Source: an uncultured Bacilli bacterium
GTDB taxonomy: Bacteria > Bacillota_I > Bacilli_A > RF39 > UBA660
NCBI GenBank assembly: GCA_947628895.1
Contig: CANRBS010000002.1
Coordinates: 2,818 to 66,817, forward strand
Length of the DNA stretch: 64,000 bases
Reading direction: 5' to 3'
The position numbers and the translations under genes were made by a program. The notes below the pieces were generated by a model. That model ran no database searches. It saw nothing but the letters and a program-made list of their open reading frames with translations, and was not told the DNA's origin. Shown here piece by piece: positions 17,475 to 58,278 of the stretch. Within the stretch, counting starts at the first letter, position 1. Every line of letters starts with the position of its first letter.

Positions 17475-17687
17475 TTATTTTGTATATGGTAATAAAGCCA
17501 TATATCTTGCTCTTTTTATTTGATTAGCAATATGTCTTTGATGTTTTGCACATGCACCAGTCATTCTTCTAGGTAAAATTTTACCTTTTTCATTAATATA
17601 TTTAGATACAATTGCTACATCTTTATAATCTACTGGTTTTCCGGCACACATTTGACATATTTTTTTTCTTCTATAAAATTCAGCCAT
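17475..17687 (-). CDS. rpsR: 30S ribosomal protein S18
   Basis: 70 aa S18 ([32 protein letters not shown]). Confidence 0.95.
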
Positions 17688-17701
17688 TATTTCCTCCTTA
17701 T

Positions 17702-18178
17702 CTAAAATGGTAAATCATTGTCACTCAATGATACTTCTTTATCATAATTTTCATAAGGATCTGAATCTGGAATATCAAATTCTGGCACTATATCAATTGG
17801 TGGTTCACTTGGTGCATCTATATAACTATTATCAGTTGTAGTTGTACTATTCATTGAATCATTCTTTCCACCAACAAATTCTACATTTTCTACTATAACT
17901 TCTGTTACATATCTTTTTGTTCCATCTTGAGCATCATAATTTCTAACTTGAACTCTACCATCTAAACAAATCATATTTCCTTTTTTGAAATATTTAGATA
18001 TAAAATCTGCTGTTTGTCTAAATGCTACACAAGGTAAAAAGTCCGCATCATAATTTCCATCTTTATTCTTAAAGTTTCTATTTACAGCTACAGTAAAATT
18101 TACAGTATTAAAGCCAGCACTTGTTGTTCTCAATTCTGGATCTCTAGTAAGTCTACCAACTAAAATTATTTTATTCAT
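17702..18178 (-). CDS. ssb: Single-stranded DNA-binding protein
   Basis: OB fold ([17 protein letters not shown]) with an acidic C-terminal DLPF tip; sits between rpsF and rpsR. Confidence 0.95.
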
Positions 18179-18181
18179 AAA

Positions 18182-18469
18182 CTACTCCTCTTCTCTTATG
18201 ATAATATGTCTTAAGATATTTTCATCAATTTTTGCTTTACGATCAAATTCTTTTACTGCAGCAGCTGATGCTTCTACATTAAATACATAGTAATTTCCTC
18301 TTACTTGTTTGTTAATTGGATATGCTAATTTCTTTTGTCCCATATCCTTTGTATTAACGATTTTAGCTTTCATATCAGTAAGTACTTTTTCAAAAGCAGA
18401 AACTGTATCTTTTTGTGCTTTTTCGTCAATATCAGTTTTAACAATAAACATTATCTCATATTTGTTCAT
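18182..18469 (-). CDS. rpsF: 30S ribosomal protein S6
   Basis: MNKYEIMFIV... is a typical S6; first gene of rpsF-ssb-rpsR. Confidence 0.95.
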   Translation of the reverse strand: MNKYEIMFIVKTDIDEKAQKDTVSAFEKVLTDMKAKIVNTKDMGQKKLAYPINKQVRGNYYVFNVEASAAAVKEFDRKAKIDENILRHIIIREEE

Positions 18470-20158: not shown

Positions 20159-20187
20159 TTGACATTTTACGAGTTTTATGATATAAT
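20159..20187 (+). promoter_or_regulatory. Near-consensus sigma-A promoter
   Basis: TTGACA (20159-20164), a 17 nt spacer, then TGATATAAT with extended -10 (TATAAT at 20182-20187). Confidence 0.75.
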
Positions 20188-20193
20188 GTTATT

Positions 20194-20660
20194 CGTATGG
20201 AGCATTATGCTAGTCAACCATACCACTAGAAGATGGGGCTAAAAATCCATTAATTGTGCAAGAAGGTACTTTATATATTTTGCTTCTTTCGCCCAGATTG
20301 GGGTGGATATATAATTTAAGATTTAAGGAAAATATGCAATGGCATGTATATGAAATCCTTTTATCAATCCGTGAAGTGATGATATGCACATGTCGTGAGT
20401 GATTTGTTGGGATAATTATTTTGAAAAATAAATTGCAAAAGCGAATAAAAGTGTCATATGATTGTTTGGGAAAACCTCTAGTGTGTTCTTATTATAAAGA
20501 TTGAAGTGCGGACTAAGTGGTGATCGAGTGATCATACAAGGTAACTTATGATTAATATCTTTAAAAAGAAATTGCCTACAGGTAACTAAGGGTAGATATT
20601 AGAGAAATTCAACTCGACCAAAGCCGTAAAATTAATTTATAATAATCCATACAAAATTTC
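20194..20660 (+). ncRNA. Candidate large structured RNA / long 5' leader (OLE-like hypothesis)
   Basis: About 470 nt with no ORF and its own strong promoter. Visibly richer in G/C than other spacers. Has local hairpins (CCCAGATTGGGG, GATCGAGTGATC, CTACAGGTAACTAAGGGTAG). 5' GTATGG (20195-20200) can pair with CCATAC at 20647-20652. No terminator before the downstream CDS. Confidence 0.4.
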
Positions 20661-20679
20661 TAAAGGGAGTTTATTAAAA

Positions 20680-21204
20680 ATGAAGAAAGATAATTGGATC
20701 ATTAAAGCATTTTTAATGACTTTTTTTATAGCTATAATTTTTAATAGTATATCAAATGTCATTACAAATAAATGCGAAAATATTTTTATTTTAATATTAG
20801 TTGCGATTATATTTATTTTTATAGGTATAATTTTTGATATAATTGGTACTGCTGTATTAACTGCTAATGAATCTACATTTCACTCTATGAGTTCTAAAAA
20901 GATAAAAGGTTCTAAAGAAGGAGTTTATTTAATTAAAAACTCAAGTAGAATTGCTAGTGTATGTAATGATGTAATTGGAGATATATGTGGTATAGTTAGT
21001 GGTTCTGTTAGTGCTATTATTGGAATATATATTTCTAATTTATTTAATATTTCAACAATAATTACAACATTAGTAATAAGTTCAATAGTATCATCTCTTA
21101 CAGTTGGTGGTAAAGCTATTGGTAAAAAAATAGCTATTAAAAAAAGTGATGATATTATATTTAGAGTAGCTAAAATAATTTATAAATTTAAACTTAAAAA
21201 ATAG
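20680..21204 (+). CDS. Small 4-TM membrane protein resembling a stand-alone DUF21 (CNNM/CorB transmembrane) module; OapA-like candidate
   Basis: 174 aa with four TM helices. LTANESTFHSMSSKKIKGSKEGVYLIKNSSRIASVCNDVIGDI parallels the DUF21 S-E-T-A...loop...helix pattern. RBS AAAGGGAG. Confidence 0.4.
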   Translation: MKKDNWIIKAFLMTFFIAIIFNSISNVITNKCENIFILILVAIIFIFIGIIFDIIGTAVLTANESTFHSMSSKKIKGSKEGVYLIKNSSRIASVCNDVIGDICGIVSGSVSAIIGIYISNLFNISTIITTLVISSIVSSLTVGGKAIGKKIAIKKSDDIIFRVAKIIYKFKLKK

Positions 21205-25733: not shown

Positions 25734-26090
25734 TTAATATGGATTAGGATAACTTTGTAAACCATATCCATCTCCTTTTAACCAATATATTTTATTACCT
25801 TTAATTTTAAATTTATATATTATTTTATATTTTACATTGTCTTCTTTTGAATATGTAAATGTTACAGTACTATTACCATTTTTATTTGGTATAAATGTCC
25901 ATTTATTATCAGTGCTTTCTTTTAATATAATGTTATCATTATCACTTACATAATTCCAATTATAACCATTATCATGATAATCATATTCAATATTAATTTC
26001 ATCCTTGTATTTAGCTAAATAATTTTGAGGATAAAATATTATAACTAAAGATAAAATTAAAGTAATTCCAAATATTAATATATATCTCAT
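25734..26090 (-). CDS. Small secreted/anchored protein of unknown function
   Basis: N-terminal hydrophobic signal, beta-rich Asn/Tyr/Lys sequence, RBS AGGAG. Confidence 0.4.
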   Translation of the reverse strand: MRYILIFGITLILSLVIIFYPQNYLAKYKDEINIEYDYHDNGYNWNYVSDNDNIILKESTDNKWTFIPNKNGNSTVTFTYSKEDNVKYKIIYKFKIKGNKIYWLKGDGYGLQSYPNPY

Positions 26091-26619
26091 TTATTCTCCT
26101 ATAATACACAAAAAGCAACCAGTCCTGATAAAACTTGATTGCTTTGAGTTTCCGAAAAACGATTATAATCATTTATATTAAAGGATTTCACTTTAATATA
26201 AATACTCCTAAATATTATCAGTATTTAGCATAATCCCTTATCATTTTGAGTTTAGCTTTCTCAACGATATATCATTTGTCCTTAGTAGATAAGTCTTCTA
26301 TATCTTAAATTAATAAGATTAATTTATTTCTTATAAATATTATTTTTTTATTACTATAACTATTTACATATAAATAATTAACAAGTTAATGCTAACTATA
26401 AACATATAAAATTCATTATAATATTTATATCTATAAGATAATAAATATTTATAGAATATTTTCACTATAGATAATATAATTTTTAAATATCATCAATCTA
26501 AATTAAATATTTAAATTTAATAAAGATATATAGATTTTAAATTTTTTATATTATCTCTATTGGACAAGTATATTGTATCAAGTATTTTTTATATTGTCAA
26601 CTACTTTTTTTAAAAAAAT

Positions 26620-38716: not shown

Positions 38717-39892
38717 CTAATCTCTAGCACTTTTATCAATTTCAATAACAATTTTATATTTATCAGGTAAATCCATTTCTTGTGTTGTTATAATATTTGC
38801 TTTATTTAAATCACTTACAAGTTCTCTTACTTTACTAATCATATTTGGTAAAGTAATTTTTTTATTTTCTTCTAATACATTATTTTGTTCTTCTATATCA
38901 TTATGATTTTCATCATTATATTCATCATGTTTTTCTGGCTCTTTATCACTAAAATTATATCTATCTTTCATAGCATTATTAATTATTTCATCATAATAAC
39001 TACTATCTTTTTGATTTTGAATTTGTTCATCTATTTTTCTAATATTATTTTCAAATTCTGTTTGATAAGGATTCAATGATTCTTCTTTTTGTTCTTCTTT
39101 ATTTTCTTCATGAATTTGATTTTCTTTTGGAATATCATTAGACATATCATCAATATTTACTACTTCTGGTTTATTTAATTCACTAATGTGATCTATTTTA
39201 TTTTCTGCACTTTCTGTTTCTTTTTGCATTTCTTGTTCTAAGAACTTCATTAATCCTACTGGAATATCATTATCTATAGTTGATTTATTTAAAAGTTTAC
39301 TTATTTCTTCTTCTGTTTGTCTTACAGTTAATCTTTCATTAACTATTCTATTTAATAATTCAACTTGTAAGTTTGAATCATTTAAAGATAATAAACTTCT
39401 TGCATGTCTTTCACTTATTTTATTATGTAATAAAGCATCTTGTACTTCTTTAGGTAAACTTAAAAGTCTTAATTTATTAGCTATTGATGATTGACTTACA
39501 CCAAGCTTTTTAGCAATTTCTTCTTGTGTATAATTTTTATCAATTAATTTTTTATAAGATTGAGCTTCTTCTATTACAGTTAAATTTTTTCTTTGTAAAT
39601 TTTCTAAAAGTGCTATTTCTGAACTAGTATTATCATCAGTATTTTTTATAATTGCTGGAACTGATTTTAGACCTGCTAAAAGAGAAGCTTTATATCTTCT
39701 TTCACCTGCAATTATTTCATATTTTGAACCTATATTTCTTAAAACTAATGGTTGAATAATACCATATCTTCTAATAGAATCAGCAAGACTATTTAATTCT
39801 TGTTCATCAAAAGCAAGTCTTGGTTGAAATCTATTTGGTATTATATCTTCAACTCTAACATTTATTATTTTTTCATTTTCTTCCATACTCAT
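38717..39892 (-). CDS. noc: ParB-family protein with Noc-type DNA-recognition residues (nucleoid occlusion protein-like), atypical N-terminus and long acidic insertion
   Basis: PNRFQPR and GERR ParB boxes. QSSIANKLRLL and KISERHARSLL match B. subtilis Noc (QSTIANKLRLL, KITERHARAL) rather than Spo0J (RPHIANHLRLL, LSMGHGRTLL). Sits next to rsmG as noc does in Bacillus. Confidence 0.75.
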   Translation of the reverse strand: MSMEENEKIINVRVEDIIPNRFQPRLAFDEQELNSLADSIRRYGIIQPLVLRNIGSKYEIIAGERRYKASLLAGLKSVPAIIKNTDDNTSSEIALLENLQRKNLTVIEEAQSYKKLIDKNYTQEEIAKKLGVSQSSIANKLRLLSLPKEVQDALLHNKISERHARSLLSLNDSNLQVELLNRIVNERLTVRQTEEEISKLLNKSTIDNDIPVGLMKFLEQEMQKETESAENKIDHISELNKPEVVNIDDMSNDIPKENQIHEENKEEQKEESLNPYQTEFENNIRKIDEQIQNQKDSSYYDEIINNAMKDRYNFSDKEPEKHDEYNDENHNDIEEQNNVLEENKKITLPNMISKVRELVSDLNKANIITTQEMDLPDKYKIVIEIDKSARD

Positions 39893-39996: not shown

Positions 39997-40701
39997 TTAT
40001 TTTATACTTTCCTTTTTTATAATATTATAATTTCTTGGATACTTTAAATCTGTAGATTTATATTTTTTAAATACTAATAATGTTCTTTTTGAATTTTCTA
40101 TTGGTAATTCATAATCTATTTGACTATCTAATCTATAACTTAATTTATCTATGTTTTTCTCTGCAAATTTTAATTCTTCTAATGCATTTGCTTTCATTGG
40201 TATAAATTCTCCATTAATTTTTAATAATGAAGATGAAAGCTCTAATATAATATTTAAATTAGATACTGCTCTACAAGTGACTATATCAAATAATTCTCTA
40301 TTATTTTTACCATAATCTTCTACTCTTGTGTTTATTATTTCTACATTTTTTAGATTTAATTTATTTTTTACGGCTTCTAAAAATGTAACTTTTTTACTAT
40401 TTGATTCTATTAATGTAAAGTTTGAATTATCAAATATTATTGCAAGTACCATTCCTGGAAAACCTGCTCCTGTACCAAAATCACATATTTTTTTATTATT
40501 TAAATTAGTTGTTTTAACTAGACATAAACTATCATAAAAATGTTTTAAATAAATATCTTTTTCTTCAATAATTGTTGTTAAATTAAATTTTTGATTCCAC
40601 TTAATTAATAAATTTTTATATTCTTCTAAACCACTCAAATTTTTAGTAGTTAAATTTATTCCAAGAATACTACAATATTTTATAAACTCTTCTTTAGTCA
40701 T
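39997..40701 (-). CDS. rsmG: 16S rRNA m7G527 methyltransferase
   Basis: GidB family; DFGTGAGFPG SAM motif; follows mnmG. Confidence 0.9.
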   Translation of the reverse strand: MTKEEFIKYCSILGINLTTKNLSGLEEYKNLLIKWNQKFNLTTIIEEKDIYLKHFYDSLCLVKTTNLNNKKICDFGTGAGFPGMVLAIIFDNSNFTLIESNSKKVTFLEAVKNKLNLKNVEIINTRVEDYGKNNRELFDIVTCRAVSNLNIILELSSSLLKINGEFIPMKANALEELKFAEKNIDKLSYRLDSQIDYELPIENSKRTLLVFKKYKSTDLKYPRNYNIIKKESIK

Positions 40702-45873: not shown

Positions 45874-45898
45874 ATGTCACCTAATAACAATATTATAT

Positions 45899-45927
45899 AA
45901 AAAAAATTACTTAATTGAAAGTAATTT
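45899..45927 (-). terminator. Hairpin/attenuator between rpmH and rnpA
   Basis: AAATTACTT / AAGTAATTT 9 bp stem (45904-45912 / 45919-45927) with a 6 nt loop, followed by a T-run on the reverse strand. Confidence 0.55.
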
Positions 45928-45929
45928 AT

Positions 45930-46052
45930 TTATTTTGCTAATTCTTTTCTTCCTTTTGCTCTTCTTGATTTTAATACATTAGTTCCTTTTCTTGCTAAAA
46001 AACCAGAAGTTTTACTTTTCTTTCTATTATTTGGTTGAAATGTTCTTTTCAT
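45930..46052 (-). CDS. rpmH: 50S ribosomal protein L34 (short, 40 aa)
   Basis: Below the ORF-track size cutoff. Reverse strand encodes [40 protein letters not shown]. Confidence 0.9.
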
Positions 46053-46314
46053 TAATTATAACCTCCATTTCTTCTTTGACTGACATAGATTATATAATAT
46101 GAAATTTTAAAAGTCAACCTTTTTATAGGAAATTAGGGAAAAGTAAGTTTAATTTTAACACCAAATATATTATTATTTATTTTTATTTTTTAATTTATAG
46201 ATTATTAGTATAAATATTTTAATATTTAAAATTTAATTTATATTATGTAAACTTCTAATTTTAATATAATATTATGTTAAGTTATTAACACTATATTAAC
46301 AAAATTATGTTAAC

Positions 46315-46379
46315 TTATACACAATTTATCAACATAGGTAGTAAACATAATGTTTAAAAATTGTTGATATTGTTGATAA
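46315..46379. promoter_or_regulatory. oriC part 1: DnaA-box cluster upstream of dnaA
   Basis: TTATACACA (46315-46323), TTATCAACA (46326-46334), TGTTGATAT (46362-46370), TGTTGATAA (46371-46379). Each is one or two mismatches from TTATCCACA. Extremely AT-rich flank at 46140-46300. Confidence 0.75.
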
Positions 46380-46551
46380 CTTAATTTTTTATTTGATTTT
46401 AAAAGAAAAAATTGTTTACAAAAAGTTAAAAAATTGTTAGTATAAATGTTAATTAAAAAAATTATTTTGCATTTTTTTTTAGATGTTTTATAATTTTATT
46501 AGAAGGAATAAAAGTCGGTTGATTAATAAGTTATAGAAAGGATAGATAAAT

Positions 46552-47946
46552 ATGAATACAGAAGATATTTGGAATAGTTTTTTATCTAAAATAAAATCAA
46601 AAGTATCCTTAATGACTTATAACTATGTTTTTAGTGATATGAAGTTATATTCATATGATAATAGTTCTATAAAAATTATTATTCCTGATAATGAATTACT
46701 CTTACAAAATATTAATAAAAATTATGGAACTATTATTGAAGATATATTAAATGATATAACTAATGATACATGTGAAATTGAATATGTATTTGCTAAAGAT
46801 ATAGCTTCTTTAGAATCTAATAAGAAGAAATTAACGGAAATAAAAGAAGAAAATGATGATCTTATAGACAACGATTTATCAAATTACAAATATAATAGTA
46901 ATTTTAATCCAAAGTACACATTTGATACATTTGTTGTAGGGGAAGCAAATAAACTTGCATATGGCACGGCACTTGCAGTAGCACAAAATCCTGGAAAACT
47001 ATATAATCCTTATTTCTTATATGCTAAAAGTGGTCTTGGAAAAACACATTTAATGCATGCAATAGGTAATTATATTGTTACTCACAGTGATAAAAAAGTT
47101 TTATATATAACTGCAGAACAATTTACTAATGATTATAGAGCTATTATTAATAATAAGAATAAAAATGGTAATAACATTTCATATTTAGAAGCATTTAGAG
47201 ATAAATATAGAAATGTAGATGTATTAATGATTGATGATATACAATTCCTTGAAAGTAAAACAAAAACACAAATAGAATTTACAAATACATTTAATTCACT
47301 TCATGATAATGATAAACAAATAATAATTGCATCAGACACATCAATAAATGATTATAAATATTTAGAAGATAGACTTAAAACTAGATTTAGATGGGGACTT
47401 ACTGAATCAATAAATCCACCTGAATTTGAATTAAAGAGAAATATAATTAAAAATAAAATAATGGTTAACAACTTTGATTTAACTCTTAGTGAAGAAATAA
47501 TTGATTATATTGCTAATAATTGTGGAAGTGATATAAGAAATCTTGAAAATGCAGTACTGAGAATTGTAGCATATAAAGCAGCATTTAATATTCCAGAAAT
47601 AACTATGGATATTGCACAAGATGCACTTCAAGAATATGTTAACACTCCTATATATAGAGTTAATTCAGTAGCTAAAATTATTGATGTCGTTGCTAAATAC
47701 TTTGGTATTGATTCATCAATGATAAAGGGTAAGATGAAGAAAAAGAATATAGCTGATGCTAGAGCTATCACAATGTACCTGTGCAGAATACTTACTGAAG
47801 AAAGCTTAGAAAGAATAGGACTTGAAATAGGAGGAAGGGATCATTCAACAGTTATCTATTCTTATGAAAAAATATCAAATGAATTAAAAACAAATATTAA
47901 ACTTCAAGAAGAAATAAAAATATTAAAAGATAAACTTAGTGAATAA
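46552..47946 (+). CDS. dnaA: Chromosomal replication initiator DnaA
   Basis: AAA+ Walker A GKSGLGKTHL; C-terminal DNA-binding signature (RDHSTVIYSYEKI). Confidence 0.97.
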   Translation: MNTEDIWNSFLSKIKSKVSLMTYNYVFSDMKLYSYDNSSIKIIIPDNELLLQNINKNYGTIIEDILNDITNDTCEIEYVFAKDIASLESNKKKLTEIKEENDDLIDNDLSNYKYNSNFNPKYTFDTFVVGEANKLAYGTALAVAQNPGKLYNPYFLYAKSGLGKTHLMHAIGNYIVTHSDKKVLYITAEQFTNDYRAIINNKNKNGNNISYLEAFRDKYRNVDVLMIDDIQFLESKTKTQIEFTNTFNSLHDNDKQIIIASDTSINDYKYLEDRLKTRFRWGLTESINPPEFELKRNIIKNKIMVNNFDLTLSEEIIDYIANNCGSDIRNLENAVLRIVAYKAAFNIPEITMDIAQDALQEYVNTPIYRVNSVAKIIDVVAKYFGIDSSMIKGKMKKKNIADARAITMYLCRILTEESLERIGLEIGGRDHSTVIYSYEKISNELKTNIKLQEEIKILKDKLSE

Positions 47947-49338: not shown

Positions 49339-49803
49339 ATGGATTATGAAATCACATATGATACTCAAATAATATTACCAATTGATGAGAATTCTTCAAA
49401 AATCATAGAAAATGATAGTGAATATGTTATTAATAATAGTACATTAAATATCCTAGAACATAGTTGTGAATATTTTGGTAGTTCTTATGAAGGAAGAAAA
49501 GAAGGAACTAAAAAGTTATTAGGTATTACTCATAAATCACCAATCATAGTTGAAGAAAGTAGAAAAATAATATTTTTTCCAACAAGTTCACCAGAAAATA
49601 GTAATTGTATATGGATTAATTTAGAAAAAATAGAAAAATATTATAAAGTAAATTCTAAAAAATCTGCAATATTATTTAAAAATGGTGATGTAATAGAATT
49701 TGATGTTTCTTATGGTTCACTTACTAATCAAATATTAAGAGCAACAAGATTAAAATACATTCTAGAAGAGAGAATGACTAAAAAAGAAGATATTTTATTA
49801 TAA
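49339..49803 (+). CDS. comK: ComK-family competence transcription factor
   Basis: SCEYFGSSYEGRKEGTKKLLGITHKSPIIVEESRKIIFFPTSS parallels B. subtilis ComK SCRFFGSSYAGRKAGTYEVTKISHKPPIMVDPSNQIFLFPTLS. Confidence 0.75.
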   Translation: MDYEITYDTQIILPIDENSSKIIENDSEYVINNSTLNILEHSCEYFGSSYEGRKEGTKKLLGITHKSPIIVEESRKIIFFPTSSPENSNCIWINLEKIEKYYKVNSKKSAILFKNGDVIEFDVSYGSLTNQILRATRLKYILEERMTKKEDILL

Positions 49804-49964
49804 TTATTTTCTAAAAATAAAAAAATTTTTAAAAATTTATTAGATTTATTTCTATTTTATATTTATAAGATTGAAATAAGTCTTTTTATTTAAAAAAATT
49901 AAATTTATTGTTTTTTAATTTTTATAAAAAATATGATATAATACATTTAAAGGTAGTGTTGAGA

Positions 49965-51032
49965 ATGAAGAAAACAAAAGATATTACTTATTATAGAAAT
50001 ATGTTGCATAAAGAAAATATTATTTTATTAATAATATCAGTTATATTTATTATTGTAAATTTTTTATACATATCAAAAGGAATAGAAAAAGCAATACCTA
50101 TATTTTTAAAATCAATTTTGTTTTTAATATTTTCAATATTAATAATATCTAATAAAAAAGAAAATAAAAAATTTATAGGAAATTTAAATATAATAATTAG
50201 TAGTTTAATGATTATAACATCTGTTGATGGTTCTTTATTTAGTGTAATGTATTTTTTATTAGGAATTTTTATAATAATGCATTCCATATTATATTTAAAA
50301 CAATTAAAGCAATCTAGAGAACAAAGTGATAGTGTAAGAATAGAAAGTAAATATAAATATTTACCATTAATTTCTTTTTTTATAACAATTATATTAAGTA
50401 TATTAGGTATTATATTTAATCAACCTTTAATTTTATTAGGAATATCTTGGTGTAGTATTTCAATTTTTATTATAAATATTTTTGAAATAATATTATGTAT
50501 TATATTAAATAGAAAAAATATAAAAACTTCATTGAATTATATACTTTTAGTTATATCAATAATTATTACACTATTAAATATTTTATTTTTAAAAGATGGC
50601 ATAAGACTTTATCAATTAGAAAAGAATTATAATAACAGTGAAGATTATGTTATAGATATTATAGAACAAATAGAGGACGATATTATTTTTAATGCAATGA
50701 ATATTAAAAATCAAAAATTATTTAATATACAACAAGGAAAAAATATAATACAATTAGATGATTACTTAAAAAAGACAAACTATGAGAATTTTAATTTAAA
50801 AAACTTAGAAAAAGAAGGATATAAATGTGTAGGATATTTATCTTTAATTATTAATAATACAGTTAACTATGAAAAATATTCAGAAATAATAAATGATGAA
50901 TATTATTTAAATCTAAATTTTCAATACAATGTTGATAAATATTTTGAAGAGGCAAAGACTTATATTAAATGTAATGGTAAATATAATTATCAAACAAAAA
51001 ATTTTGATGAAAGTAATATAAAATCATATTAA
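49965..51032 (+). CDS. Polytopic membrane protein with soluble C-terminal domain, unknown function
   Basis: About seven TM helices, then an Asn/Lys/Tyr-rich soluble part. Start taken at MKKTKD. Confidence 0.35.
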   Translation: MKKTKDITYYRNMLHKENIILLIISVIFIIVNFLYISKGIEKAIPIFLKSILFLIFSILIISNKKENKKFIGNLNIIISSLMIITSVDGSLFSVMYFLLGIFIIMHSILYLKQLKQSREQSDSVRIESKYKYLPLISFFITIILSILGIIFNQPLILLGISWCSISIFIINIFEIILCIILNRKNIKTSLNYILLVISIIITLLNILFLKDGIRLYQLEKNYNNSEDYVIDIIEQIEDDIIFNAMNIKNQKLFNIQQGKNIIQLDDYLKKTNYENFNLKNLEKEGYKCVGYLSLIINNTVNYEKYSEIINDEYYLNLNFQYNVDKYFEEAKTYIKCNGKYNYQTKNFDESNIKSY

Positions 51033-54181: not shown

Positions 54182-56740
54182 ATGGATAGTGAAGAATTAA
54201 ATAATAATGAAAATACAGAATTAGAAGAAACAGAAGAAACTGAATCATTAGAAAATGTTGAAAATAGTGAAGAAAATAATGATTTTGGTGGAACTTTTCA
54301 TGAAAGAGATTCACATAGAGAAAATAATATTGTAGATGAAGTCAAAGATTCTTTCTTAAATTATTCAATGAGTGTTATTACTTCTCGTGCAATACCAGAT
54401 TTAAGAGATGGTTTAAAACCAGTTCACAGAAGAATCTTATGGTCAATGTTTGAAGAAGGAAATACCCCTGATAAACCTCATAGAAAATCAGCAACTACAG
54501 TAGGTAATGTTATGGGTCATTACCATCCACATGGTGACTCATCAATATATGATGCTATGGTTCGTTTAGCACAAGATTTTAATCAAAGATATATGCTTGT
54601 TGATGGACATGGTAACTTTGGTAATATTGAAGGTGATGGACCTGCTGCATATCGTTATACAGAAGCAAGACTTGCTAAAATATCATTAGAATTATTAAGA
54701 GATATTAACAAAGATACTGTTGATATGGATTTAAACTTTGATGAAACCAGAAAAGAACCAAAAGTATTACCATCAAGATTTCCTAATATATTAGTTAATG
54801 GTTCAATGGGTATTGCTGTTGGTATGGCAACAAATATTCCACCACATAATTTAACAGAAGTTATTGATGGATGCATTGCTTATATTGATAATCCAGATAT
54901 TGATACTGATGGATTAATGCAATATATTAAAGGTCCAGATTTTCCAACAGGTGGTATTATTTTAGGAAATTCTGGTATTAAAAAAGCATATGAAACAGGT
55001 AGAGGTTCTATAACAATTAGAAGTAGAGCTGAAATAGAAGAACATAATGGACATAACACAATTGTATTTACTGAAGTTCCATATGGTGTTAATACACAAG
55101 AGTTAAAGGATAAAGTAGCAGAACTTGTAAGAGATAAAGTAATTGATGGAATAACAGATTATCATACAGATTTAAAAGATGGTGTAAAAATTACAATTAC
55201 ATTAAAAAGAGATGCGAATGCTCAAGTAGTTTTAAATAATTTATATAAACATACATCATTTCAAACAAATTATGGAATTATATTCTTAATGTTAGATGGT
55301 TTAACACCAAAAACTTTAGGATTAAAATCAATTATTTCTAAATATATAGATCATCAAAAAGAAATTATTATTAGAAGAACAAAATTTGATTTAATTAAAG
55401 ATGAAAAAAGAGTTCACATCTTAAATGGTTATAAAATAGCACAAGATAATATTGATGAAGTAGTTAAAATTATTAGAAATGCTTTAGATGATGCTGATGC
55501 TAAAGAAAAATTAATGTCAAGATTTGGATTAGATGAAATACAATCTGATGCAATATTAGAATTGAAATTAAGAAGATTAACTGGTTTAGAAAGAGATAAA
55601 ATTGAAGAAGAATTACAAAATCTATTAAAAGAAATAGAAGAATTAAAGTCAATTTTAGCTAGTGAAGAAAAAGTTCTTGAAATAATTAAGAAAGAAATGC
55701 TTGAAATTAAGAATAAATATGGTGATGAAAGAAGAACAACAATTGATATGACAGCTATTGAATATATAGAAGATGAAGCATTAATTCCACAAGAAGATGT
55801 AATTGTTACATTAACTAACAAGAATTATATTAAGAGAATTTCAAAAGATACATATAAAGCTCAACATAGAGGTGGTGTTGGAATTAAAGGTATTACTACT
55901 ACTGAAGAAGACTATGTTGAACAATTAATTTCATTAAATACACATGATAATTTATTATTCTTCTCAAATAAAGGTAAAGTCTATAGAATGAAAGGTTATG
56001 CAATTCCTGAATATTCTAGAGTTGGAAAAGGTTTACCAATAGTTAACTTATTATCATTAGAAAAAGATGAAAAAATTAATACAATGTTAAAAGTAGAAAA
56101 AGATATTTCAAACAAATGTTTGTTGTTTAGTACAAAAAATGGTCTTGTTAAACGAACTTTATTAAGTGAGTTTGATAATATAAGACAAAGTGGAAAAATA
56201 GCTATTACATTAAAAGAAAATGATGAATTAATTTCAGTTAAATTGGCAGATGAAAATAGTCAAGTATTAATGTGTTCATCAAATGGTAGAATGGTAAGAT
56301 TTAATGTTAATGAAATTAGAATAATGGGTAGAACAGCAGCAGGAGTTAGAGGTATTAATCTTAATAATGATATTTGTGTTGGATCTGAAGTATCTGAACC
56401 AGGTAAACTATTATTGGTAGTTACAGAAAATGGTTATGGAAAGAAAACGATTATTGAAGATTATAGAGAAACTAAGAGAGGAAGTAAAGGTGTTAAAACA
56501 CTAAATATTACTGAGAAGAATGGAAAAATAGTTAGCTTCAAATCTACAAATAATAATGAAGATTTAATGATAATAACAAATAATGGAATTATTATTAGAT
56601 TAGATGTTAATGCAATTTCTCAAATGGGTAGAGTTACTCAAGGCGTTAAATTAATTAATCTAAAAGATGATAATAAAGTTGCTTCAATATCATTAGTTGA
56701 AAAAGAAGAAGTAGAAGAAGAATCAGAATTAAATGATTAA
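54182..56740 (+). CDS. gyrA: DNA gyrase subunit A
   Basis: Active-site Tyr motif AAYRYTEARL; beta-pinwheel C-terminal domain; acidic tail. Confidence 0.97.
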   Translation: MDSEELNNNENTELEETEETESLENVENSEENNDFGGTFHERDSHRENNIVDEVKDSFLNYSMSVITSRAIPDLRDGLKPVHRRILWSMFEEGNTPDKPHRKSATTVGNVMGHYHPHGDSSIYDAMVRLAQDFNQRYMLVDGHGNFGNIEGDGPAAYRYTEARLAKISLELLRDINKDTVDMDLNFDETRKEPKVLPSRFPNILVNGSMGIAVGMATNIPPHNLTEVIDGCIAYIDNPDIDTDGLMQYIKGPDFPTGGIILGNSGIKKAYETGRGSITIRSRAEIEEHNGHNTIVFTEVPYGVNTQELKDKVAELVRDKVIDGITDYHTDLKDGVKITITLKRDANAQVVLNNLYKHTSFQTNYGIIFLMLDGLTPKTLGLKSIISKYIDHQKEIIIRRTKFDLIKDEKRVHILNGYKIAQDNIDEVVKIIRNALDDADAKEKLMSRFGLDEIQSDAILELKLRRLTGLERDKIEEELQNLLKEIEELKSILASEEKVLEIIKKEMLEIKNKYGDERRTTIDMTAIEYIEDEALIPQEDVIVTLTNKNYIKRISKDTYKAQHRGGVGIKGITTTEEDYVEQLISLNTHDNLLFFSNKGKVYRMKGYAIPEYSRVGKGLPIVNLLSLEKDEKINTMLKVEKDISNKCLLFSTKNGLVKRTLLSEFDNIRQSGKIAITLKENDELISVKLADENSQVLMCSSNGRMVRFNVNEIRIMGRTAAGVRGINLNNDICVGSEVSEPGKLLLVVTENGYGKKTIIEDYRETKRGSKGVKTLNITEKNGKIVSFKSTNNNEDLMIITNNGIIIRLDVNAISQMGRVTQGVKLINLKDDNKVASISLVEKEEVEEESELND

Positions 56741-56810
56741 GTTACAACAGATAATAATGTGAATAAAAAAACTGATGAACAAGAAAATAACTAATTAAAA
56801 ATATAAAAAA

Positions 56811-56826
56811 TATTTCCCGGGAAATA
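56811..56826. promoter_or_regulatory. Noc-binding-site palindrome (NBS-1); may double as the gyrA terminator
   Basis: Exact TATTTCCCGGGAAATA inside the 26 bp palindrome AAAAATATTTCCCGGGAAATATTTTT, followed by a T-run. Confidence 0.7.
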
Positions 56827-56863
56827 TTTTTTATTTTATCTGAACAAAAATTAATGTGAAAAT

Positions 56864-56879
56864 TATTTCCCGGGAAATA
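56864..56879. promoter_or_regulatory. Noc-binding-site palindrome (NBS-2)
   Basis: Exact TATTTCCCGGGAAATA inside AAAATTATTTCCCGGGAAATAATTTT. Confidence 0.7.
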
Positions 56880-56991
56880 ATTTTTGTGAAGCTAGAATTT
56901 AAAATAAAAATAATTTTGTATTTCTAATGTGAAAATTCAATTGTGAAAATTGTGAAATTTTTAGTAATTAATGTAAAAATATATATGAAAT

Positions 56992-57007
56992 TATTTCCCG
57001 GGAAATA
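56992..57007. promoter_or_regulatory. Noc-binding-site palindrome (NBS-3)
   Basis: Exact TATTTCCCGGGAAATA inside the 28 bp palindrome TGAAATTATTTCCCGGGAAATAATTTCA. Confidence 0.7.
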
Positions 57008-57205
57008 ATTTCACAATAAAAAGTAATAGTTTTTATTGTGAAATTTGTAAAAATTTAATTAAGTCATACAGTGATAGATACATTGTATTATTTATTATAA
57101 ATATAGTGTGAGATTATTAAATTGTGTAAAGTAAAATTTATAATAATTCTTTATTTTAAATTTATACAAATAAAAATATTAAAATTCAGTAAACAAAAGT
57201 GAAAT

Positions 57206-57221
57206 TATTTCCCGGGAAATA
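57206..57221. promoter_or_regulatory. Noc-binding-site palindrome (NBS-4)
   Basis: Exact TATTTCCCGGGAAATA inside the same 28 bp palindrome as NBS-3. Confidence 0.7.
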
Positions 57222-57294
57222 ATTTCAAAGCAAACATTTTATAAAAAAATATATTTCATACTTTTATGATTTATTATTTTAAAAATATTTGTTT

Positions 57295-57310
57295 TGTTTC
57301 ACGTGAAACA
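57295..57310. promoter_or_regulatory. parS site 1
   Basis: Exact TGTTTCACGTGAAACA, the perfect palindromic form of the B. subtilis parS consensus TGTTNCACGTGAAACA. Confidence 0.85.
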
Positions 57311-57477
57311 TTTATATAAAATTAAAAATTGTTCTAAAATTTTAAATAATTACAATAAATAGTAAATAAATTAAGTAATATAATCAATATAATTAATAAA
57401 TTTAATTAGTATTATATTGATATAGTAATTATTAATATAGTAAAATTTTAATAAAAAATATAAAGAAATGTAAAAAT

Positions 57478-57493
57478 TATTTCCCGGGAAATA
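57478..57493. promoter_or_regulatory. Noc-binding-site palindrome (NBS-5)
   Basis: Exact TATTTCCCGGGAAATA inside AAAATTATTTCCCGGGAAATAATTTT. Confidence 0.7.
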
Positions 57494-57530
57494 ATTTTCA
57501 ATAAACACAAAATTCAAACAGTAAAAATAA

Positions 57531-57559
57531 TTGATATTAAAATTAATTTATAGTATAAT
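57531..57559 (+). promoter_or_regulatory. SRP RNA promoter
   Basis: TTGATA (57531-57536), a 17 nt spacer, then TATAAT (57554-57559). Confidence 0.7.
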
Positions 57560-57564
57560 TTATT

Positions 57565-57643
57565 TGTGCAACAAGTCTAATATGAAACAGGTCAGAATTG
57601 GAAAATAGCAGCCTTAAGTATGAAACTTGTGTGCACATTTTTT
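57565..57643 (+). ncRNA. ffs: Small (4.5S-type) signal recognition particle RNA
   Basis: CAGGUCAGAAUUGGAAAAUAGCAGCC aligns with the E. coli 4.5S domain IV CAGGUCAGGUCCGGAAGGAAGCAGCC, with compensatory AUU/AAU in place of UCC/GGA around the GGAA loop. A 12 bp closing helix TGTGCAACAAGT/ACTTGTGTGCACA is followed by a T-run. In B. subtilis the SRP RNA gene (scr) lies between tadA and dnaX; here ffs lies just upstream of tadA, so the neighbourhood matches but the order differs. Confidence 0.85.
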
Positions 57644-57658
57644 ATTGAAATTAAATTT

Positions 57659-57674
57659 TGTTTCACGTGAAACA
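57659..57674. promoter_or_regulatory. parS site 2
   Basis: Exact TGTTTCACGTGAAACA with the same flanks (TTTTG...TTTATA) as parS site 1. Confidence 0.85.
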
Positions 57675-57706
57675 TTTATAAAACTTTACAAGTAAATGTG
57701 AAAAAT

Positions 57707-57722
57707 TATTTCCCGGGAAATA
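57707..57722. promoter_or_regulatory. Noc-binding-site palindrome (NBS-6)
   Basis: Exact TATTTCCCGGGAAATA; the copy of NBS-2 within direct repeat B. Confidence 0.7.
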
Positions 57723-57834
57723 ATTTTTGTGAAGCTAGAATTTAAAATAAAAATAATTTTATATTTCTAATGTGAAAATTCAATTGTGAAAATTGTGAAA
57801 TTTTTAGTAATTAATGTAAAAATATATATGAAAT

Positions 57835-57850
57835 TATTTCCCGGGAAATA
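57835..57850. promoter_or_regulatory. Noc-binding-site palindrome (NBS-7)
   Basis: Exact TATTTCCCGGGAAATA; the copy of NBS-3 within direct repeat B, 20 bp before the tadA start. Confidence 0.7.
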
Positions 57851-57870
57851 ATTTCACAATAAAAAGGTAG

Positions 57871-58278
57871 GTGAAATACTTGAATATTTGTGAATTTTTA
57901 AAAAAATTAAATAATAAAACATTAAAAAATGAAGATGTACCTGTTTCATGTGTTATTGTGAAAAATAATAAAATTATATCTAAATCATATAATCAAAGAG
58001 TTAAAAAAAATAATCCTCTAGCACATGCAGAAATATTAGCAATACAAAAAGCATCTAAAAAATTAAATACATATAATTTAAGTGATTGTGAATTATATGT
58101 AACATTAAAGCCATGTAAAATGTGTGAAGAAGTAATCAAATCTGCAAAAATACAAAAAGTATATTATTTTTTAGATCAAAATAAGGTTGCTAATAACAAA
58201 ATTAATTACAAAAAATTAGAAGATCAAAATGAGTATTTTTATAAGGAATTAACTGAATTTTTTAAAGATAAAAGATAG
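57871..58278 (+). CDS. tadA: tRNA-specific adenosine deaminase
   Basis: CDA Zn motifs HAE and PCKMC. GTG start as given in the ORF track, so the exact start is uncertain. Confidence 0.85.
   Translation: MKYLNICEFLKKLNNKTLKNEDVPVSCVIVKNNKIISKSYNQRVKKNNPLAHAEILAIQKASKKLNTYNLSDCELYVTLKPCKMCEEVIKSAKIQKVYYFLDQNKVANNKINYKKLEDQNEYFYKELTEFFKDKR

Follow-up and report, generated by a model that had tools for sequence, protein, structure and literature searches.

The 64,000-nucleotide stretch considered here (positions 2,818 to 66,817 of contig CANRBS010000002.1 from an uncultured Bacilli bacterium of the RF39 lineage; the window) carries in its gyrA-tadA intergenic spacer a dense array of two kinds of palindromic binding sites, seven Noc-binding sites (NBS) and two parS sites of ParB/Spo0J. 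This spacer is probably an origin-proximal composite loading zone, or double centromere, for two paralogous ParB-family clamps that depend on cytidine triphosphate (CTP). The array itself, its recurrence beside the replication origin (oriC) of related genomes and the Noc-like protein encoded in the window point in this direction; binding, CTP-dependent clamping and spreading, and the downstream function are what we infer from sequence.

The site array in the gyrA-tadA spacer

The spacer extends over 1130 bp, its longest open reading frame (ORF) reaches 48 amino acids, and it holds the entire array (Table 1). The preliminary description of this DNA had reported a 1.1-kb ORF-free spacer with seven exact NBS and two exact parS, and all nine sites proved to be exact. 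The NBS 16-mer TATTTCCCGGGAAATA, which includes the palindromic core ATTTCCCGGGAAAT in all seven copies, finds no extra match in the 64 kb even when two mismatches are allowed. Its chance expectation is 0.02 by shuffling, and seven copies were reached in none of 100 shuffles. The parS 16-mer TGTTTCACGTGAAACA has no other match in the 64 kb at up to three mismatches. The identification of both 16-mers with the published sites holds, as they form the cores of the B. subtilis Noc and ParB oligonucleotides GGATATTTCCCGGGAAATATCC and GGATGTTTCACGTGAAACATCC (PMC8429893).

The G+C content of the window is 23%. The hexamer CCCGGG, for which the base composition predicts 0.17 occurrences, is present seven times, every time within an NBS, and thus has no further copy, as had been noticed before; CACGTG is present twice, both times within parS. 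Around each NBS the palindrome remains perfect over 26-32 bp: the earlier range of 26-28 bp is right for six copies, while copy 1 reaches 32 bp. Copies 2 and 3 recur as copies 6 and 7 in a pair of direct repeats which are not fully identical, and this argues against an assembly artefact. Same-species contigs from other samples (L001, L002 and L004) begin 44-52 bp upstream of tadA, L001 within an NBS, which is the behaviour expected from a real repeat; the arrays are the reason why short-read assemblies break between gyrA and tadA.

The array is situated on the right arm, about 9-11 kb from oriC and dnaA. This estimate is based on the position of dnaA (46552-47946), where the GC skew switches its sign at about 46 kb, between the intervals of 44-46 kb and 46-48 kb, and it agrees with the distance of roughly 10 kb given previously. 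No perfect DnaA box TTATCCACA was found in the whole 64 kb; three DnaA-box-like 9-mers (at most one mismatch) fall in kilobase 46, the highest count per kilobase. As also described before, the array surrounds the gene of the small signal recognition particle (SRP) RNA, which is preceded by a near-consensus promoter (57531-57559; 11 of 12 positions matched in the promoter scan).

Runs of TGTGAAA(A/T)T at 56928-56960 and 57036-57045, with a duplicate at 57771-57803, resemble the parS half-site (GTGAAA), and TGTGAAA occurs nine times in the window's spacer against 0.3 expected. This heptamer was dropped as a general feature because it is partly NBS flank and partly duplication; the spacers of other species are without the enrichment.

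Table 1. Coordinates of the array, its putative reader and the origin region in the window
Feature	Position	Strand	Remarks
Noc-like ParB-family gene, predicted NBS reader	38717-39892	-	391 aa; adjoins rsmG; sole ParB-family gene of the window
Probable oriC, rnpA-dnaA intergenic region	45874-46551		GC-skew sign change, adjoining dnaA, DnaA-box-like 9-mers
gyrA-tadA intergenic spacer, holding the entire array	56741-57870		gyrA 54182-56740, tadA 57871-58278
NBS copy 1	56811-56826		within 32-bp perfect palindrome 56803-56834, ~60 bp past the gyrA stop
Direct repeat A	56859-57023	+	165 nt; 99% identical to repeat B
NBS copy 2	56864-56879		26-bp palindrome, in repeat A
NBS copy 3	56992-57007		28-bp palindrome TGAAATTATTTCCCGGGAAATAATTTCA, in repeat A
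NBS copy 4	57206-57221		28-bp palindrome
parS copy 1	57295-57310		exact 16-mer
NBS copy 5	57478-57493		26-bp palindrome
Small SRP RNA gene, embedded in the array	57555-57652	+	Rfam RF00169, 55.6 bits
parS copy 2	57659-57674		exact 16-mer
Direct repeat B	57702-57866	+	165 nt; 99% identical to repeat A
NBS copy 6	57707-57722		28-bp palindrome, in repeat B, duplicate of copy 2
NBS copy 7	57835-57850		28-bp palindrome, in repeat B, duplicate of copy 3

Recurrence of the arrays in related genomes

The 22-mer palindrome AATTATTTCCCGGGAAATAATT was searched for in one genome per species of 185,579 species, and at least 120 blocks of 8 kb matched. All figures on blocks given here concern the 120 that were listed, 80 of which represent 79 different contigs. 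Among the matches listed, the carriers are almost all low-GC gut metagenome-assembled genomes (MAGs) labelled as uncultured Bacilli, Tenericutes or Mycoplasmatota. The origin-region gene set from prfA to psp1 was recognised in 110 of the 120 blocks (tblastn with the window proteins), and six more are syntenic with the segment just past psp1, which makes 116 of 120 origin-proximal. The one block whose genes place it away from the origin is L195. Three further blocks were left unplaced; two of them are much richer in GC (0.42 and 0.46), and a member of this pair is labelled Syntrophomonadaceae. The restriction of NBS to the origin is strong, not absolute. As a separate observation, 27 stretches of viral contigs carry one NBS 16-mer apiece.

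Counted over the blocks, perfect 14-bp cores number 244 for the NBS, and perfect cores number 196 for parS; the outer T and A, which bring the NBS to 16 bp, never vary. The hybrid half-site combinations TTCCCGTGAA and TTCACGGGAA occur zero times each. Such a lack of hybrid sites argues for two discrete specificities, read by two homodimers. The location of the sites is also distinct: 181 of 197 parS lie in the gyrA-tadA spacer, and the NBS are distributed among this spacer (124), the inside of dnaX (33) and the segment past psp1 (31), with a few more in the intervals jag-mnmE and rsmG-noc. Both sites are present in 21 of the 45 complete gyrA-tadA spacers, and every spacer has at least one of the two. 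In 14 of the 16 complete spacers that were sampled through an NBS elsewhere in the block there are at least two parS, and several spacers which seem to hold NBS only contain parS variants with one or two mismatches. The perfect NBS of the 33 dnaX cases (L158, L170, L181, L209 and L225 among them) stands about 1.0-1.15 kb into the gene; the window's own dnaX has no NBS.

These data bear on the possibility that the palindromes are RNA or DNA hairpins which terminate transcription in both directions or act as insulators at gyrA, the SRP RNA gene and tadA, and that their match to the NBS is a coincidence. The RNA of copy 1, located after the gyrA stop, would form a stem of 14 bp (-10 kcal/mol) with a U-rich tail behind it, and many NBS of the relatives stand directly after genes (gyrA, jag, rsmG, psp1). 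However, the consensus terminator scan returned none in the spacer, where a hairpin with a U-rich tail is found at copy 1 only, and a terminator would not be placed inside the dnaX ORF, as 33 of the listed NBS are. The 16-mer is invariant and its flanks are variable, which suggests recognition by a protein rather than a conserved stem. The sites are confined to the origin region and accompanied by a protein bearing NBS-type residues, and for terminators an arrangement in tandem arrays reaching about 10 units would be senseless. A terminator function of the array as a whole is thus extremely improbable, and the check for a generic terminator or repetitive extragenic palindromic (REP) element, which had been named as the finding that would speak against the preliminary description, came out negative on the same grounds of origin proximity and location within dnaX.

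In several relatives, parS and NBS are joined into one tandemly repeated unit. Examples are a 125-bp unit in 10.7 copies (L269, 2363-3702), a 62-bp unit in 6.7 copies (L159, 18-435) and a unit with a period of about 126 bp (L160, 2264-2905). The units are 88-91% identical, and their lengths are near whole numbers of helical turns. Such composite units were amplified separately in different lineages. The closest pairs of NBS and parS are separated by 23-27 bp from centre to centre. In the set of L158-L277 and the window, with shared ancestry ignored, the distances between neighbouring NBS follow a phase of 10.5 bp (R=0.55, p ~2e-5), and neighbouring NBS and parS are offset by about 0.43 turn (R=0.23, p ~0.004). 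This helical phasing of the sites is suggestive only.

The spacer of the window can hardly be aligned with those of its nearest sampled relatives (gyrA 76-82% identical), except for the NBS, the parS and the SRP RNA gene, which is kept in the aligned spacers of L270 and L236. Both of these also retain perfect and near-perfect parS in the diverged spacer. Like the window with its ratio of 7:2, the nearest relatives are rich in NBS and poor in parS.

The repetitive character of the arrays could also result from neutral repeat dynamics, in which the array arose from a single ancestral NBS and a single parS through slippage or gene conversion, without selection on the copy number. The identity of 88-91% between tandem units and of 99% between the two repeats of the window is in line with such a process. 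It does not explain, however, why the amplifications took place separately with unit lengths of 62, 125 and 126 bp, why the sites of non-tandem spacers are perfect and the sequence between them diverged, or why adjacent NBS hold the helical phase. Neutral multiplication is therefore very unlikely. The number of sites per kilobase, their preservation in perfect form and their repeated co-amplification speak instead for selection that favours a high loading rate of the two proteins at a single location.

The Noc-like protein

The predicted reader of the NBS is encoded directly downstream of rsmG (39997-40701), the same place that noc occupies in Bacillus. The database gene call of this Noc-like protein (P0001) begins two codons after the start of the 391-aa ORF. 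The protein contains the Pfam domains ParB_N and HTH_ParB, and the solved structures of Noc match it better than those of Spo0J (207 vs 165 bits). The CTP motifs GERR and ENLQR are invariant in 25 homologues. In the databases, homologues are named only 'ParB/RepB/Spo0J family partition protein'.

According to the alignment with the Noc structures, the four specificity positions of the protein are Q-K-S-R. At these positions Noc has QKKR and ParB RxxG (PMC7383237). The residues determining NBS specificity are Q173, K179 and/or K184, and R201, with one lysine at 179 or 184 being enough (PMC7383237). In the variant screen, QKAR is absent from the lists of non-functional, switched and promiscuous variants (PMC7383237) and is therefore NBS-preferring by elimination, and the same is expected for a Q-K-S-R protein. 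A preference of the Noc-like protein for NBS is thus the expected one.

The N-terminus differs from that of Noc. The protein begins about five residues ahead of the first strand of the N-domain and about 20 residues of Noc are missing; its residue 4 aligns with residue 23 of Geobacillus thermoleovorans Noc and its residue 6 with residue 27 of B. subtilis Noc. There is no upstream start for the ORF, as the stop-to-stop frame adds at most 10 codons, none of them a start codon. An N-terminal extension or a membrane-targeting helix, whose role in Noc has been described (PMC8429893), was found in none of the 14 homologues whose sequences were examined.

The second distinctive part is a linker of about 140 inserted residues that separates the DNA-binding domain from a small C-terminal domain, which in the AlphaFold2 model consists of a helix and two strands and resembles a dimerisation domain. 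The linker, with 40 D/E vs 16 K/R, is acidic and for the most part disordered, and two conserved segments within it are predicted to be helical, 'DIPxxhxKFL' (residues ~208-228) and 'NPFQxxFxxNIxKIEE' (~273-311), encoded at 38960-39271 of the window. These helices are the obvious candidates for the binding of a partner. A relocated membrane helix was also considered. The conserved segment 'IPxGLMKFL' does not rank with the most amphipathic parts of the protein and is modelled at a predicted local distance difference test (pLDDT) value of about 50, so that this role remains speculation. Its hydrophobic moment is 0.43-0.46, compared with 0.43 for what we take to be the N-terminus of B. subtilis Noc, and the first linker motif has a hydrophobic and basic pattern that is presumably the one of the B. 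subtilis Noc membrane helix, at low model confidence.

The simplest function of such a protein would be ordinary nucleoid occlusion from dispersed sites. The protein is Noc-like in its sequence, its synteny next to rsmG and its specificity residues, and the known Noc sites are likewise biased toward the origin half of the chromosome (PMC5540599). The 165-nt duplication accounts for two of the NBS copies, and the scan used a 22-mer as its probe and returned at least 120 blocks. Nevertheless, the 116 origin-proximal blocks lie within about 25-35 kb of oriC, including that of a complete circular MAG of 1.52 Mb (OZ006970.1), where an even spread of the sites predicts a few percent. The scattering of single NBS in B. 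subtilis, to which the preliminary description had referred, is well founded, as the known sites are single and spread over +-700 kb (PMC5540599). Moreover, the helix needed for nucleoid occlusion is missing from all 14 homologues examined. On the other side of the origin, stretches of about 20 kb left of oriC in five related contigs show no NBS at up to one mismatch, and the six loci reaching from dnaA/rnpA past noc (L009, L010 and L278-L281) contain neither NBS nor parS at that threshold. Dispersed nucleoid occlusion is thus unlikely as the function of these sites.

The putative reader of parS

The window contains both ancestral neighbours of soj-spo0J, namely noc and the rpsF-ssb-rpsR segment (17478-18469, minus strand). 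In sister lineages the gene order is rsmG-noc-like-soj-spo0J-...-ychF-rpsF. Spo0J of these lineages has the parS-type R...G residues, and the neighbouring Noc-like protein has Q-K-S/T-R and no membrane helix. In the family of the window the order is rsmG-noc-like-(variable gene)-PBP. The relatives with the noc-PBP order, together with the low-GC gut contigs L311 and L366, carry a block of soj-spo0J-DUF951-abgT-ychF elsewhere (L362-L373, L311), and in relatives from the family of the window this moved block has a conserved location, preceded by a gene for an AMP ligase and another gene of about 330 aa. The longest source contigs of three pairs of Noc-like protein and canonical ParB are of equal size (543403, 385614 and 348979 bp), and each pair is most likely encoded on one contig. 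The search through ParB homologues did not reach the ParB of the window species itself; P0248 comes from other samples, and the link is made at the family level only.

An alternative explanation is that ParB and Soj have been lost in the genus of the window and the NBS array is its sole working centromere, with the parS being relics or read by the Noc-like protein. Neither a motif scan nor tblastn searches using the Soj and Spo0J of L223 and L280 revealed a ParA or a ParB of the parS type in the 64 kb around oriC, despite the presence of both ancestral flanks, and the excess of NBS over parS in the window and its nearest relatives fits such a loss. On the other hand, two perfect 16-bp parS in DNA of 23% GC would not last without selection, and L270 and L236 keep theirs in an otherwise diverged spacer. 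The relatives with the noc-PBP order retain the translocated soj-spo0J block, and a single promiscuous reader is at odds with the absence of intermediate or hybrid sites. The loss of ParB is hence very improbable.

The proposed loading zone and points against it

In the double-centromere model, homodimers of the Noc-like protein would nucleate on the seven NBS palindromes, and homodimers of a canonical ParB/Spo0J, encoded outside the window, would nucleate on the two parS. Upon CTP binding, the dimers would close into clamps and slide onto the flanking DNA, so that both proteins would come to coat the oriC region at a distance of about 10 kb. Loading would be faster with several sites within 1 kb. 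ParB would then link the origin to Soj and/or SMC, and the Noc-like protein would recruit a second partner (the membrane, the pole or the division machinery) to the origin specifically. Recruitment of another partner is proposed because the protein has no N-terminal membrane helix and possesses a long acidic linker with conserved helices. Both Noc and ParB are known to nucleate on a 16-bp site, bind CTP, close and slide (PMC8429893), and the zones enriched in Noc extend over 8-10 kb around a site (PMC5540599); with the array at about 10 kb, both proteins could reach oriC. The composite platform suggested by the preliminary description thus gains support from the relatives, where NBS and parS are interleaved and amplified as one tandem unit.

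Several observations weigh against this reading. First, NBS copies 6 and 7 arose by recent duplication of copies 2 and 3, so that of the seven NBS five are independent. Copy 1, with its stem of -10 kcal/mol and U-rich tail, may double as the terminator hairpin of gyrA. Second, in the low-GC MAG L195 the NBS at 2919 and 6022 flank polA in the polA-mutM locus, away from the origin, and with a 22-mer as the probe, NBS with other flanks may be present elsewhere in these genomes. Third, the best NCBIfam match of the Noc-like protein, nucleoid_noc (TIGR04285), scores 265.8 bits, under the curated cut-off of 315, and the protein is without both the N-terminal amphipathic membrane-targeting helix of Noc (~10 aa) and helix alpha2. 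Fourth, the only ParB-family gene found in the 64 kb is the Noc-like one; Soj and Spo0J would be encoded outside the window in this genome, as relatives with the same noc arrangement carry soj-spo0J elsewhere.

Beyond the loading zone itself, a broader interpretation can be put forward tentatively, at slightly less than an even chance. The Noc paralogue without the helix would form a second, NBS-based centromere-like complex that shares a few hundred base pairs with the ParB-parS centromere in a large uncultured lineage of gut Bacilli, instead of serving genome-wide nucleoid occlusion, and the two clamps, loaded from co-amplified units, would mark oriC for two machineries. The protein may represent the intermediate that is missing between ParB and Noc, in which the specificity has been switched and membrane targeting and site dispersal are yet to come. 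Just as well, it may be a Noc that was secondarily re-used for the positioning of the origin.

Comparison with known systems

The sequences of NBS and parS and the proteins of the ParB and Noc types are already known. The literature searched contains no description of NBS arrays, of NBS confined to oriC or of NBS interleaved or co-amplified with parS, which agrees with the preliminary description, where the arrangement was not one known to be described; it also offered nothing relevant on Noc in RF39 or Mollicutes and no account of a widespread Noc-type protein without the membrane helix.

The nearest known system is Noc-NBS of B. subtilis and Staphylococcus aureus. The 16-bp site is identical, and in both cases the reader is a ParB-family paralogue adjoining rsmG with NBS-type residues and intact CTP motifs. 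The known NBS are single, whereas here they are arrayed in 1 kb and found almost only within tens of kilobases of oriC. A scatter over the origin-proximal half to two-thirds of the chromosome would be expected of Noc-NBS, but the window has seven NBS in 1.05 kb and none in its other 63 kb. The Noc-like protein also differs by lacking the helices of membrane activity and by its acidic linker insertion of ~140 aa. The system most likely loads as canonical Noc-NBS does; it is not assigned to it because the scattered sites and the N-terminal helix are both missing.

The chromosomal ParB-parS centromeres share with the array perfect parS 16-mers clustered a few kilobases from oriC, and related genomes encode canonical Soj/Spo0J with the R...G residues. 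In contrast to these centromeres, the parS are here interleaved with the sites of a second paralogue, sometimes 23-27 bp apart in one tandem unit. Among plasmid centromeres, sopC of the F plasmid consists of a 43-bp repeat in 12 copies, and SopB, a protein of the ParB family, binds the 16-bp inverted repeat present in every copy. The tandem arrays of the relatives (62 bp x 6.7 and 125 bp x 10.7) are similarly built of head-to-tail units with a palindromic ParB-family site. They are, however, chromosomal, and their units carry two sites for two paralogues; the array of the window is dispersed. A functional analogue may be RacA-ram, which anchors the origin in sporulating B. subtilis and likewise represents a second set of sites near oriC with a reader other than Spo0J, one that could tie the origin to a cell structure. 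RacA is no ParB-family CTPase, and by sequence the ram sites have no relation to those described here.

The pair of Noc and ParB serves in textbooks as the example of a DNA-binding protein which, after duplication, took on a new site together with a new job. A few parS in a cluster let ParB mark the origin, and Noc, from scattered NBS, marks most of the chromosome and ties it to the membrane. In the genomes described here, NBS are used in the fashion of parS: clustered, beside oriC and often in tandem with parS. If the proposed reading is true, nature offers here a case of two CTP-dependent sliding clamps that share one short stretch of DNA for their loading, and it would allow asking whether the two clamps pass, block or cooperate with each other. 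It would also provide a candidate evolutionary intermediate for the transition from ParB to Noc, which has until now been studied by mutagenesis alone. Finally, it would mean that the biology of a widespread Noc-type protein has been overlooked in a common gut lineage, because databases label the protein merely as 'ParB family'.

Other features of the window

The sporulation genes of the lineage include spoIIR and BofA. Between dnaN and recF, the window carries a ComK-family ORF (49339-49803) and an ORF of 374 aa (49908-51032, plus strand; no Pfam match), and the ComK ORF is found at the same position in many related genomes.

Two structured RNAs are encoded farther from the array. A full-length ornate large extremophilic (OLE) RNA is located at 20181-20666 (plus strand, 215 bits), its host being a low-GC gut bacterium. 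The small ORF directly after it (20680-21204, plus strand) resembles the gene of the usual OLE-associated membrane protein, with a weak match of the CNNM/DUF21 type (25.8 bits, under the cut-off). A PGK RNA motif (RF03040, 84 bits) lies at 26208-26300 on the minus strand, upstream of the ORF at 25734-26090.

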